Assembly: GCA_035687895.1 (NCBI GenBank)
Contig: DASRUE010000044.1
Location: forward strand, 3,555-67,554
Length of the DNA stretch: 64,000 nucleotides
Source of the DNA: Bacteroidota bacterium
GTDB taxonomy: Bacteria > Bacteroidota > Ignavibacteria > UBA10030 > UBA6906
Reading direction: 5' to 3'
Of the stretch, positions 1 to 4,276 are shown in pieces. Each line of letters opens with the position of its first letter. The first letter of the stretch is position 1. The position numbers and the translations under genes were made by a program. The notes under the pieces were generated by a model. It saw nothing but the letters and a program-made list of their open reading frames with translations. It searched no databases and had not been told where the DNA came from.

Positions 1-361
1 GCCCGTAATTCGGAATCAATGTGTATCCGTTCCTTTTGTACAGTCCAATAGCTTCCGGCTGTTTTTTCCCCGTCTCTAATACACACTTTGCATACGATAA
101 TTCGCTTGCCCAATGTTCCAGTTCAGAGAGGATTTTTGTGGCGATCCCCTTGTTTCTGCTCCCAGGCTCAACGTACATGCGTTTGATTTCCATTGTATTC
201 GTCCCATACTCTTTTATGGCTCCGCAACCCAACGGTTTTTCATTTTCATACGCGAGGACGACATACTTGATGTTGTCGATCGTATTGAATTGAGCGTAGA
301 AGGAATGCTCTTCACCGTCCCTTTGTGCAAGGTCCGCGTCAAGTAATTTCACAAGTTCCAT
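1..361 (-). CDS. GNAT family N-acetyltransferase (3' end runs off the window start)
   Basis: This ORF is absent from the ORF track because it has no stop inside the window. The reverse complement from ATG 361-359 reads MELVKLLDADLAQRDGEEHSFYAQFNTIDNIKYVVLAYENEKPLGCGAIKEYGTNTMEIKRMYVEPGSRNKGIATKILSELEHWASELSYAKCVLETGKKQPEAIGLYKRNGYTLIPNYG. It has the acetyl-CoA loop RNKGIATKIL and the YKRNGY tail typical of the GNAT fold. Confidence 0.8.
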   Translation of the reverse strand, partial: MELVKLLDADLAQRDGEEHSFYAQFNTIDNIKYVVLAYENEKPLGCGAIKEYGTNTMEIKRMYVEPGSRNKGIATKILSELEHWASELSYAKCVLETGKKQPEAIGLYKRNGYTLIPNYG

Positions 362-427
362 AAAATCGTGATTATCAGAATTGGTTCTGATGATGTCTAT
401 CATATCCGCTATCTATTCTCGGGTGAC

Positions 428-571
428 GCACAACGTGTGCGCAAACTACGGCACGCACTCCACGCTCTTTATGATTGCGTGCAGCGTGGGGCGAACTCTA
501 CTGAGTTCGCTCCAGTTGCTTTGACCGAGCCTTATCAAATTTTTGAGCGACGTAGTTTGTCGCTGTTATGC
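428..571 (-). mobile_element. attC-like recombination site of the 584..1141 cassette
   Basis: Window + strand: GCACAAC(428-434)-GTGT-GCG-CAAACTACG(442-450) ...100 nt... CGTAGTTTG(551-559)-T-CGC-T-GTTATGC(565-571). The site starts 12 nt after the TGA stop. The R box pairs 6/7 (G.T wobble on the - strand). The L stem is 3+9 bp with a bulged T, and the centre is structured (hairpin 491-510). Confidence 0.6.
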
Positions 572-1165: not shown

Positions 1166-1298
1166 GCATAACGCGTGCAGGCATTACGCCGGTTGTTTTG
1201 CTGCTATGAACGACTCATTCTTTTTGCGGCAAAACAAATGGAGCGCCCACAATTGTTCTCTTACAAAAAATGGAACGTCGTAATGACTGCTGTTATGC
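1166..1298 (-). mobile_element. attC-like recombination site of the 1293..2312 cassette
   Basis: Window + strand: GCATAAC(1166-1172)-GCGT-GCAG-G-CATTACG(1182-1188) ...90 nt... CGTAATG(1279-1285)-A-CTGC-T-GTTATGC(1292-1298). The R box is a perfect 7 bp, the spacer is asymmetric, and the L stem is 4+7 bp. There is an inner 9-bp hairpin (1193-1201 / 1229-1237). The TAA stop of the ORF lies inside the R'' box. Confidence 0.65.
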
Positions 1299-2312
1299 GA
1301 CGTTTGCGGCAACATCATACTGTAATCTTGTTGTTAGTTCATTTTCGAATCGAGAAACAAAGGGAACTCTATCAATCACGTGGACTTCAAATCTTCTTCT
1401 TACATTGCCGCCCGTTTTGAGACCAAGATCTTCAGCCGTTGTGTAGGTTAGCAAGTTCGGAATTGGACCTAGGAATGCATCGGGAAGCTCATCACGCAGG
1501 CGAGCGAAAGGCAGTTTTTCAAGACTACAAATGATGAGCTTCTCCTTGATGATGCGTTTGGAGCTGAGTCCCACGGCAAAACCAATCTCTTCAAAGACCT
1601 TACTTCGGATGTGATAGTAATTTTGCATTATCGCCTGTAATCTTGCCTTGTGGAATTTCGAGCCGATGTAGAGTGTGGCGACAACAGACTCGTGCTTGTC
1701 ACGTTTAGATGCAACAATGGGAAATACTACGCCCTCAATCGGCTTCACTTCTCTGAGATTGATACGCCGAAGCGTTTTCTTTGAAACTGTAACCAGTTGT
1801 TCTATTCTCGTCCTTATAGGGAGAATGGAAAATGCTGAGGTGTCCCTTTTCTCCTGAAGTTTAGCCTCAACGCTTGCTTTGAGCGGTCGTGTGACATAAT
1901 TGATTCTGCGGAGCAAGCGCTTTTTAAAGGTTGAGTCATCGTGACTACGCCAAGTCACGATATTTTTCATCTGCAAATGGAAATGCACCCGCAGGTTGCC
2001 TTTTGGGTCATCGGTGCGTGGTTTAAGATGGTCCACACGGCAAGTGTATATAACGGGAATCGACCTCTCAGCAAAGCCAGCCTCATAGTAGACGGAAGGA
2101 CGAGCAAAAGATAGATCAGCAACGACAAAGTCAGCATCTAGGATTTCATTGATGATTCTGTTATTGAGATCGTCATTATGCTCAATTCTGATCATGCATC
2201 TGGGAATGACCTCTGCTCTATGCAGCGTCGGCAAAAGAGACTTCTTGAGCAGGAGTTCTGTCTGCTTATCACTGAAGGACATAGCCACAAAGCATTTGAG
2301 TTTACTGGACAT
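1293..2312 (-). CDS. nucleoside 2-deoxyribosyltransferase-like/TIR-like N-terminal domain protein with uncharacterised ~220-aa C-terminal domain; gene cassette
   Basis: 339-aa ORF. The N-terminus reads KCFVAMSFSD ... DADFVVADLS ... RPSVYYEAGFAERSIPVIY (Glu77), the signature pattern of the NDT/TIR-like Rossmannoid fold. I recognise nothing in the C-terminal two thirds. Confidence 0.6.
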   Translation of the reverse strand: MSSKLKCFVAMSFSDKQTELLLKKSLLPTLHRAEVIPRCMIRIEHNDDLNNRIINEILDADFVVADLSFARPSVYYEAGFAERSIPVIYTCRVDHLKPRTDDPKGNLRVHFHLQMKNIVTWRSHDDSTFKKRLLRRINYVTRPLKASVEAKLQEKRDTSAFSILPIRTRIEQLVTVSKKTLRRINLREVKPIEGVVFPIVASKRDKHESVVATLYIGSKFHKARLQAIMQNYYHIRSKVFEEIGFAVGLSSKRIIKEKLIICSLEKLPFARLRDELPDAFLGPIPNLLTYTTAEDLGLKTGGNVRRRFEVHVIDRVPFVSRFENELTTRLQYDVAANVA

Positions 2313-2337: not shown

Positions 2338-2359
2338 GTTGCCGCAAATGACGCATAAC
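2338..2359 (-). repeat. GTTATGC core (R'-type) plus 15-nt flank; inverted copy (20/22) of 1292..1313
   Basis: The reverse complement of 2338-2359 is GTTATGCGTCATTTGCGGCAAC, against GTTATGCGACGTTTGCGGCAAC at 1292-1313. It lies 40 nt upstream of the ATG of the 1293..2312 ORF and marks the 5' boundary of that cassette. Confidence 0.6.
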
Positions 2360-2520: not shown

Positions 2521-3486
2521 TCAATCCCTGCGTCTTAGAAGACAAAACAAATGATACCTTCCTCTTCGCAAATCGGAAGAAGCGAGCTTCTTCCGCAGAG
2601 CGTTCATTGCAACAAACCCCGGGACGTGCCTGATTGCCCGTCTCACAGTTCTTTTCCAGCCTCCTGCGTGTGAGCCGGAGAGCCGGGCGACGTTCTCCAG
2701 TCGCGGTGTTCCCAGACTCTCCAAGTGTACAATTTCGAAACCCAGGTCTTGCGCAATGACACCGCATGTGCGGGAGGAAAGATACTGCATGTGCTCAAGA
2801 TCGACACGTAGCTGGACTGGATCGCGTTCCTCAAGGAGGAACGAACCGTTCGGCGTCCAGATGGAGAGAAGTCCGCCCGGCGCAAGGATGGAGCGTGCCT
2901 TCTTCAGGAGCGACAGCGGGTCGAGGGGATGCTCGATCAGGTCATGGAAGGTGATAAGGTCATACGGTTGGTCCGGGGTGAAGTCGAGGAGATCGAGTTG
3001 ATGGATTTCTGAAATGCCAAGGTGACTTCGTGCAAAATCAACAGCCTCCGGGTCGAGATCGATGCCGGCTACGCGCCCGCCGAGTTTTCTCAGCAGCACC
3101 ATCGTCAATCCGATCCCAAACCCGACGTCGAGTGTGCGGGCATTTGCAAGCCTCATGGTTGTGGCGATCTCACGTACTTTGACGTCCGTAAATGGATCCA
3201 TGGCCAGCATTTCCCTCAAGAGAGATGTATCATGCAGGTATTGCTGCATCTCCACCTTCCGATGGTTAGCATAATAGCGGGAGTATAGGTCGTTGAGCGC
3301 TTGAGCTGAAGGTGCGGGCGAGACGAAGAACGCTCCACAGGCGGAACAGGATCGCACGTGCAGGCGATCAGGGCGGATGAATTTCTCTTCCCCTTCGGAT
3401 GAACAGAAGGGGCATCGTCGCGGATGAAGGCGAGCATGGTCACACGGTGGGATACGGGCGTCAAGCGGAGGAAGGGGAGAGATCAT
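2521..3486 (-). CDS. class I SAM-dependent methyltransferase with N-terminal Cys4 zinc ribbon
   Basis: It has motif I LDVGFGIGL and the zinc ribbon CPFCSS...CSACG. The start is placed at the internal ATG (MISPLPP...) of the 2521..3645 ORF, so the exact start is uncertain. Confidence 0.75.
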   Translation of the reverse strand: MISPLPPLDARIPPCDHARLHPRRCPFCSSEGEEKFIRPDRLHVRSCSACGAFFVSPAPSAQALNDLYSRYYANHRKVEMQQYLHDTSLLREMLAMDPFTDVKVREIATTMRLANARTLDVGFGIGLTMVLLRKLGGRVAGIDLDPEAVDFARSHLGISEIHQLDLLDFTPDQPYDLITFHDLIEHPLDPLSLLKKARSILAPGGLLSIWTPNGSFLLEERDPVQLRVDLEHMQYLSSRTCGVIAQDLGFEIVHLESLGTPRLENVARLSGSHAGGWKRTVRRAIRHVPGFVAMNALRKKLASSDLRRGRYHLFCLLRRRD

Positions 3487-3669
3487 CGAAATCAAAAGCG
3501 TCCCATGGTTGCTGGTGCTGCAAAAGCTAATCAACCCCATGGAGATTATCAACTGGATTTCTCTTCTGGTACCCCACTTCTCGCCGTTTCTATTGCTTCT
3601 TGCAAAGAGAAGTGATAGAATTGTCCAGTATTCCGATGCATACATTCACAGAACAAGGAGAAAGCAGAC

Positions 3670-4212
3670 ATGTTACGAAGCCTGTTGGTCACGATCGCAC
3701 TTTTGCTTCTTGGAACGATGTCGTTCGCCCAGACGCCCATTCATGCCGGAAAGGTCGGGCTGGGGATCGACGGGGTCAGTTCGCCCAACCTGATCCTGAA
3801 GTACTTCTTCAATAACCAGCTCGCGGGGCAGGTGATTGTTGGTGTTGAATTCGACTCACCCGGCGGTGACGCTCCACTGGGACTGACGAAGGTAACGGGG
3901 ACAACGTTCCGCGGCGGGCTCTCTTTTCTTTATCATCTGACGCAGACGCAGATGTCGACGTACATTGGTGTGGAAGGGATTTTTCAGTCGGCGCAAATGG
4001 CGGGGTTCTATGTCCAGGAGCCGGATCGGAAGAGCAGTGTTATGGGTGGTGCGGTGCTGGGCGGTGAGTACTTCATCCACGATCAGTTCACGCTCGGGAT
4101 CAAGCAAATGCTCGGACTGGACGTACAACTGAAACGCGATAATCCGGCGGAATCGTCAGATGTAAGGTTTGCAACATCGACTGTGGTGACAGGCCGGTTC
4201 TATTTCGACTGA
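3670..4212 (+). CDS. small outer-membrane beta-barrel protein
   Basis: It has a signal peptide (MLRSLLVTIALLLLGTMSFAQ), alternating beta-strand pattern and an aromatic C-terminus (GRFYFD). Confidence 0.65.
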   Translation: MLRSLLVTIALLLLGTMSFAQTPIHAGKVGLGIDGVSSPNLILKYFFNNQLAGQVIVGVEFDSPGGDAPLGLTKVTGTTFRGGLSFLYHLTQTQMSTYIGVEGIFQSAQMAGFYVQEPDRKSSVMGGAVLGGEYFIHDQFTLGIKQMLGLDVQLKRDNPAESSDVRFATSTVVTGRFYFD

Positions 4213-4240: not shown

Positions 4241-4276
4241 AACCGGAGCGCAAATGCGCTCCGGTTATTTGATTTT
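4241..4276 (+). terminator. Rho-independent terminator
   Basis: An 11-bp stem AACCGGAGCGC/GCGCTCCGGTT with an AAAT loop is followed by ATTTGATTTT. Confidence 0.75.

Follow-up and report, generated by a model that had tools for sequence, protein, structure and literature searches.

Textbook attC sites, 57–141 bp in total length, have an unpaired central spacer of about 5–6 nt in each arm. Their canonical extrahelical bases, at position 16 (G16) and at T23/24, lie 6 bp apart on the L'' arm of the bottom strand, and in the attC sites of mobile integrons the bottom strand is purine-rich (top-strand GC and AT skew negative). The bottom strand is the strand that is recombined; its R' has the sequence 5'-RYYYAAC, with the cut falling between A and C, and in characterised sites it is on average the more stable of the two and the richer in G·T pairs (PMC5027507). 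Placement of the bottom strand on the lagging-strand template is favourable to folding and is associated with small arrays (PMC5371416). [quoted passage not shown]

Here we describe a 133-nt element at positions 1166–1298 of a 64-kb stretch of DNA (hereafter the window, meaning the whole stretch that was analysed). We conclude, with a probability of about 0.88, that this element (site 1) is the integron attC site of the cassette that carries a 339-aa open reading frame (ORF), and that it belongs to a CALIN of three cassettes. This reading draws on the observed structure of the site and its significance, on family membership, covariation and cassette context, and on the absence of a nearby integrase. 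An attC site in a CALIN is a kind of element that is already well known.

Site 1 shares with the attC sites of mobile integrons (59-base elements, attCaadA7) the R'' and R' boxes with their AAC/GTT triplets, the L box, the inter-box spacer, the variable terminal structure, the position just behind a promoterless ORF, and a stronger bottom strand with G·T pairs (PMC5027507). It differs from them in length (133 nt, against 57–70 nt), in having neither of the extrahelical bases that they place 6 bp apart (G16 and T23), in a spacer with some pairing and 3 nt more on the R' arm, and in the absence of a purine skew and of an adjacent intI or attI. Like Vibrio cholerae repeats (VCRs), site 1 is more than 120 nt long and has a branched terminal structure, and the family to which it belongs (motifs CGCTCCATTG ... 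CAACGGCG) likewise has motifs common to the attC sites of unrelated cassettes. Unlike VCR arrays, the cluster here is small and heterogeneous, with sites 0 and 1 (site 0 being the neighbouring attC site) sharing only the R-box region; it comes from a different host phylum, has no integrase and lacks the three VCR extrahelical bases. CALINs as described (PMC4889954; IntegronFinder 2, PMC9024848) have at least two same-strand attC sites less than 4 kb apart and no integrase within 10 kb, and, as here, are small clusters with cassettes of unknown function. Nothing essential sets the present cluster apart from them, the sites here being called by a home-built family model and a rule, not by IntegronFinder.

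Site 1 is an imperfect palindrome with its top strand on the minus strand of the window, and its R box, L box and terminal structure are all contained in the minimum-free-energy (MFE) structure of the + strand. The bottom strand has GCATAAC as its R' box (1166–1172, + strand) and GTTATGC as its R'' box (1292–1298, + strand); on the top strand, R' is GTTATGC and R'' is GCATAAC. The initial annotation had described a perfect 7-bp R box, and these two segments do pair at 7 of 7 positions; a sequence check found every string that it quoted in its place on the + strand. The AAC in R' of the bottom strand pairs with the GTT in R'', as expected of attC boxes. Each R box fits RYYYAAC/GTTRRRY at six of seven positions, position 3 of RYYYAAC being A, a purine.

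Inward of R' lies the R' arm of the central spacer (1173–1181, + strand), delineated by the pair table of the DNA fold and by the covariance-model alignment. In the pair table, G1173 wobbles with T1291, CGT at 1174–1176 is bulged and G1181 stands opposite A1286; GCAG at 1177–1180 pairs with CTGC at 1287–1290 in both the sequence and the DNA fold. The L' half of the L box follows (CATTACG, 1182–1188, + strand) and pairs with 1279–1285. The L'' arm (1279–1291, + strand; sequence and pair table) consists of CGTAATG at 1279–1285, A1286, CTGC at 1287–1290 and T1291. Between the two halves of the L box is a branched variable terminal structure (VTS) of 90 nt (1189–1278, + strand), defined by the fold, family motifs and covariation. 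Its inner hairpin, annotated initially as 9 bp long (TTGTTTTGC 1193–1201 / GCAAAACAA 1229–1237), is present and longer still, spanning 1193–1204 / 1226–1237, and on the top strand it is flanked by the motifs CGCTCCATTG ... CAACGGCG.

Folding recovered the R/L pairing foreseen in the initial annotation: with DNA parameters, the MFE structure of the + strand contains every R/L helix, and the minus strand is weaker. The + strand reaches −30.4 kcal/mol (z = −4.14; DNA parameters), a value that none of 200 shuffles equalled. When 6-nt flanks were included, the minus strand preferred other pairings and its R/L pairing was not recovered (z = −1.29); at the exact boundaries it did regain this pairing, at −21.6 kcal/mol compared with −29.4 kcal/mol for the + strand. 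The ensemble energies of the isolated strands of site 1 are −31.6 kcal/mol (bottom) and −25.7 kcal/mol (top), a difference of 5.8 kcal/mol, and the fold with both R and L boxes paired has a probability of 0.87 on the + strand versus 0.71 on the top strand. The structure of the + strand includes four G·T pairs, which are replaced by C·A at the same places on the top strand. Site 1 has, in other words, the stronger bottom strand with more G·T pairs. For site 0 (428–571), the corresponding ensemble energies are −37.4 kcal/mol (bottom) and −35.9 kcal/mol (top).

By the orientation of the cassette ORFs, the top strand is the minus strand and the bottom strand is the + strand, which we infer to be the recombinogenic one. 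Since the R-box complementarity test is symmetric, the mirror orientation, in which the window + strand would be the top strand and the ORFs reversed, was also considered and was rejected. Stop codons abut or overlap R'' and start codons lie 24–42 nt past R'; contigs L033 and L037 share the attC site downstream of the 185-aa gene and do not share the upstream one; a bulged base of site 0, T560, lies on the arm opposite the AAC of the + strand; and the greater stability of the + strand also counts against the mirror arrangement. On the + strand, 14 of 16 bins of 4 kb have a positive GC skew, a hint that the bottom strand belongs to the lagging-strand template.

Site 1 departs from the textbook geometry in several respects. 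The initial annotation spoke of a bulged L box, but what stands there is the G1181·A1286 mismatch (position 13 from the 3' end), and no extrahelical base is present. The extrahelical bases expected on the bottom strand are likewise absent: G16 and T23/24 are missing, the L stem at 1279–1285 has no bulge, and the surplus unpaired bases (CGT, 1174–1176) are on the R' arm and not on the L'' arm. The unpaired spacer had been given as 4 nt versus 1 nt. The asymmetry holds, but the G1173·T1291 wobble leaves a 3-nt CGT bulge in place of a 4-versus-1 loop; maximal pairing thus leaves 3–4 nt unpaired on the R' arm and 0–1 nt on the R'' arm, which is not the unpaired spacer of textbook sites. Similarly, the L stem of 4+7 bp with a G/A mismatch exists in the fold, but by homology GCAG/CTGC is mostly spacer: three of its four pairs fall in the central spacer of related sites, and the covariance model aligns the R' arm opposite a UAAAC spacer. 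Read by homology, the spacers are 4 nt (AGCA) and 7 nt (TGCACGC), with 3 bp of them pairable, and the L box is a G-C pair, a T·C mismatch and then 7 bp. The expected purine skew is also absent, with a top-strand GC skew of 0.00 and an AT skew of +0.04. The plan of a folded attC site, as initially proposed, therefore stands for its pairing, context and family, but not for the extrahelical base, the side of the surplus bases or the placement of the GCAG/CTGC helix. The geometry of 1 versus 4 unpaired bases recurs in site 0 and in L029 2508–2681, whose R'' (GCATAAC) is identical, so we regard it as a family trait and not as damage.

The R box alone is uninformative, because perfect 7-bp inverted repeats of the form NNNNAAC/GTTNNNN, 40–170 nt apart, are frequent in shuffled sequence (8.9 per shuffled 64 kb, compared with 11 in the real window). 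A naive scan for an R box plus a 6-bp stem gave many background matches, and a stricter scan with shuffles was used instead. An R box accompanied by at least 11 further arm pairs arose in 1 of 300 dinucleotide-preserving shuffles, an expectation of 0.003 per window; the real window has exactly one such site, 1166–1298.

Membership of an attC family was assessed with two profiles. Rfam 15 gave no match in the window at the gathering score. An nhmmer profile built from six attC sites, none of them from the window, had a single match in the window, at 1297–1203 on the minus strand (E = 1.1e-5). A covariance model was derived from four attC sites that lie on other metagenome contigs, with a hand-specified R box, L stem and VTS hairpin; its sole match in the window was the full length of 1166–1298 on the minus strand (27.3 bits, E = 2.8e-6). 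The structure was specified by hand on four well-aligned sites because a plain MAFFT alignment of family members misplaced the arms, and RNAalifold found no structure in that alignment. The central module (CGCTCCATTG, hairpin, CAACGGCG) also occurs in attC sites behind unrelated genes in L012, L017, L029, L033, L035 and L037. Soil contigs of sequencing runs X8 and X10 carry another attC site, of which the R'-L'-hairpin half is about 88% like window positions 1169–1245 and both flanks are different; further members of the attC family thus coexist in the same habitats.

In a model-guided alignment of ten family members, 87.5% of cells were paired, compared with 73.4% in shuffles, and 15 of 30 pairs were altered on both sides, compared with 6.8 ± 1.5 in shuffles (0 of 500 reached 15); because the alignment was fitted to the model, these counts lean towards the structure. 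When partners were slid out of register as a control, only 25–51% were paired. In helix 3, the VTS hairpin, 10 of 12 pairs were altered on both sides. Comparison of this hairpin with that of L012 17760–17895 (L012g and L029c being left out) revealed three compensatory pairs, and the same C·A mismatch is kept. In a control that requires no alignment, arms were cross-paired among nine sites (site 1 and eight others): the 5' arm of site 1 paired with its own 3' arm at −14.6 kcal/mol, and the other combinations reached −11.9 kcal/mol or weaker.

The cassette context is that of an integron array. Site 1 stands at the 3' end of the co-oriented ORF of cassette A (1293–2312, minus strand), which encodes 339 aa with no Pfam family; its TAA stop, at 1295–1293, lies within the R'' box, as the initial annotation had reported. 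The cassette itself would extend over 1172–2358. Cassette B (predicted extent 434–1171) has an ORF of 185 aa, also with no Pfam family, at 584–1141 on the minus strand, and its attC site is site 0 (428–571, minus strand, 144 nt), recognised by sequence, fold and arm pairing. The ORF of cassette C, a GNAT acetyltransferase, is present as its 5' part (2–403, minus strand) and leaves the window at its start. Contig L001 is the window reversed and reaches 10 kb past the window start. In cassette orientation it has the order methyltransferase, 339-aa ORF, site 1, 185-aa ORF, site 0 and GNAT acetyltransferase, followed by a bare 7-bp hairpin (GCACAAC-aaga-GTTGTGC), a rhomboid gene and convergent housekeeping genes. 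Each of the three same-strand ORFs thus has a hairpin or hairpin remnant behind it. GC content is 0.44–0.48 over the three ORFs and 0.53–0.60 on either side, marking a foreign island of 2.4 kb. The housekeeping proteins encoded in the window share at least 90% identity with proteins from MAGs that bear the label Bacteroidetes/Bacteroidota. The bare hairpin (L001 10855–10872) lies about 60–75 nt past the window start and marks the end of the low-GC island.

On its top strand, site 0 reads R'' GCATAAC, A, GCG, a bulged A, CAAACTACG ... CGTAGTTTG, CGC, ACAC and R' GTTGTGC. Its one-base bulge, T560, sits in the bottom-strand L'' arm, where the extrahelical bases belong, but at position 12. Only the rule and the fold, not the family model, identified site 0. 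A loose end at position 570 that seemed to link site 0 to another cassette proved to be a 35-nt match to a related attC arm, and the low-depth contigs of the sequencing runs with this locus showed no excision joints. In the variant contig L027, a shorter and different sequence (1650–1730) replaces the 3' half of site 0, including the R' box.

Upstream of cassette A are a methyltransferase gene of native GC content and a divergent 180-aa gene. The methyltransferase gene (2521–3645, minus strand) matches PADLOC mad2 (mads_2) with an E value of 1e-15, over the methyltransferase domain only. Just past the 180-aa ORF (3670–4212) is a perfect 12-bp palindrome with a 2-nt loop (4241–4266; AACCGGAGCGCA / TGCGCTCCGGTT), which is probably a terminator.

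Scans with PADLOC and NCBIfam assigned no function to the cassette proteins. Many homologs of the 339-aa protein bear the JGI name nucleoside 2-deoxyribosyltransferase, two of them with PF05014, and they often match only its first half, which leaves the second half unassigned. The 185-aa protein has more than 1,000 conserved homologs, the best 120 of which, as listed, are 59–88% identical; they have many invariant residues, for example in CRWKS and RYGVIDIRVW, and occur in many metagenomes, both in cassette arrays and in other contexts, several of those examined lying in arrays. On the 1.9-Mb contig L012, a long series of short genes, all on one strand (among others Cass2, DoxX, SnoaL and a beta-lactamase fold), includes one homolog, which is flanked by textbook attC geometry, GCCTAAC-TTTGC-GTAAC...GATAC-GTTAGGC, with spacers of 5 and 6–7 nt. 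On L111, a homolog belongs to a second integrase-less cluster beside native genes. Among 80 metagenome loci of 185-aa homologs, many have GCCTAAC...GTTAGGC right behind the stop codon.

Comparison of homologous cassettes defines where the units begin and end. In homologs of the 339-aa cassette (79%, 77% and 53% identity), similarity starts exactly at the GTT of the upstream R' and stops just past R''. For cassette A this 5' boundary is an R' box at 2353–2359 (minus strand; GTTATGC on the top strand), identified by sequence and by the cassette homologs. R'' is complementary to the 5' R' of its own cassette in 10 of 10 cassettes (7/7 positions, once 6/7), as expected from a G|TT crossover; it frequently lacks complementarity to the R' with which it shares a hairpin, as in site 0 (GCATAAC with GTTGTGC). 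The GNAT cassette starts with TTGTGC and ends with GCACAAC. Since site 1 follows the bottom-strand rules (PMC5027507), we infer a crossover between A1171 and C1172, that is, G|TT on the top strand. In the mechanism that we propose, the + strand, once single-stranded, would fold into a long imperfect hairpin in which the R box (1166–1172/1292–1298) and the L box (1182–1188/1279–1285) would form the two integrase-binding duplexes and the 90-nt branched centre would be the variable terminal structure. An integron integrase from another source would cut between A1171 and C1172, and strand exchange with another attC site would excise the cassette as a circle; alternatively, exchange may take place with an attI site.

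No such integrase was found close to the cluster. Phage_integrase or other tyrosine recombinase domains were absent from the 20 window ORFs scanned, and the gene list of L001, which reaches 10 kb past the window start, contains no integrase. A tblastn search with IntI1 gave no match at E ≤ 1e-3 in the window or in L001, and the related loci fetched yielded neither a cognate integrase nor an attI. The arrangement of a complete integron, an intI gene with an adjacent attI, was not present upstream of the first cassette. Sites 428–571 and 1166–1298 lie on the same strand with a gap of 594 nt, well within the 4-kb limit for CALINs, and no integrase lies within the 4–10 kb over which CALINs are judged. 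With at least two attC sites and no integron integrase nearby, the cluster is a CALIN; it is inserted between the native methyltransferase gene and the native rhomboid gene.

The strongest rival to a working attC site shares the same origin and differs in its present state: the cluster would be fixed, recombination would have ceased in the absence of an integron integrase, and the neighbouring sites would be decaying. We consider such a fossil quite possible, at somewhat below even odds. Searches with the exact cassette proteins showed an identical order in all contigs that span two or more cassettes, from several samples, and current mobility is therefore unproven; that no integrase was found in the 64 kb and the adjoining 10 kb fits the same picture. 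A synteny scan with the neighbouring amidohydrolase returned only relatives of 30–32% identity and no empty-site allele. The GNAT cassette ends, at L001 10855–10872, in the bare R''-aaga-R' mini-hairpin, which is devoid of L boxes and centre (z = −4.5); loss of the interior of its attC site by deletion is the simplest reading. At the upstream boundary, the fold of the 60 nt at 2353–2412 (GCATAAC ... GATATGC) is not significant (z = −0.9 and −1.5), and this segment may be a decayed short attC site. In L027, whose 185-aa protein is 98% identical, the 3' half of site 0 is gone. The interiors of attC sites appear to be rearrangement hot spots. Against the fossil reading, site 1 is itself intact, L027 having it unchanged with one base different just outside, and the predicted probability of its recombinogenic fold is high (0.87, as above). 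Action in trans is also conceivable, by an integrase encoded elsewhere in the genome or by one that arrives from outside, as has been proposed for CALINs (PMC4889954).

The complementarity between the two ends of a cassette extends past the R box. The last 15 nt of cassette A before R'' (1299–1313, minus strand) and its first 15 nt after R' (2338–2352, minus strand) are complementary at 13 of 15 positions. The ends of three cassettes of L033 and L037 are complementary at 12 of 15, and most other cassettes (L033, L037, L012, L106 and L109) have ends that are complementary at 9–13 of 15; combinations of non-homologous ends average 3.9 of 15. A homolog of 53% identity displays, by eye, one apparent compensatory change of an end pair from C-G to G-C. 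For the extra helix to form, the cassette must be an excised circle, or the DNA must be single-stranded so that pairing can reach across the ORF. A literature search found no description of such a cassette-end helix, which is weak evidence of novelty. It is conceivable, if unlikely, that the helix is a cassette-specific clamp, stabilising the folded attC site or joining the two flanking sites for excision, and that together with the odd geometry it marks a variant attC design; this design would presumably be used by an integrase of a Bacteroidota type.

Inverted repeats that reach 9–13 nt past the 7-bp boxes around each ORF would also suit a non-integron element akin to a repeated extragenic palindrome or a MITE, in which terminal inverted repeats of about 22 bp around ORFs are acted upon by some other enzyme. 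REP/BIME palindromes and MITEs are, like site 1, intergenic, repeated and hairpin-forming, with inverted repeats that can bracket ORFs, and no integrase turned up next to any of the related clusters fetched. However, site 1 has boxes of the attC type, with AAC/GTT triplets placed as in attC sites, together with strand asymmetry and ORF-by-ORF modularity; the hairpins stand between ORFs and not at the ends of a single element, and there is no transposase. In L012, textbook attC repeats with spacers of 5 and 6–7 nt flank the same gene. The neighbouring genes in the clusters compared (Cass2, GNAT, SnoaL, glyoxalase and DoxX) are typical integron cassette cargo. We therefore judge a REP- or MITE-like origin to be very improbable. 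Even less probable is a role for the 339-aa gene at the RNA level, as a transcription terminator or as a 3' hairpin that stabilises the mRNA. The element is suitably placed for this, directly behind the stop codon, and strongly structured, but the stem is not followed by a T-run, the element is 133 nt long and branched, and the four G·T pairs and an advantage of 6 kcal/mol are on the strand antisense to the mRNA, pointing to selection on the bottom DNA strand and not on a transcript. A chance inverted repeat, to which the abundance of 7-bp AAC/GTT repeats (about 9 per 64 kb) lends a superficial appeal, is refuted by the full architecture appearing in 1 of 300 shuffled windows, by the fold z score of −4.1 and by the family profile and covariance-model matches and the covariation.

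The identification of site 1 as the attC site of a cassette in a small CALIN leaves the understanding of integrons unchanged. It contributes a documented attC family, together with a small CALIN, from a lineage that has been poorly sampled, here an uncultivated member of the Bacteroidota recovered in metagenomes of soil and sediment. Real attC sites can do without the textbook extrahelical bases and spacer geometry, and the non-canonical geometry of site 1 bears on the constraints used in structure-based attC detectors and in synthetic attC designs.
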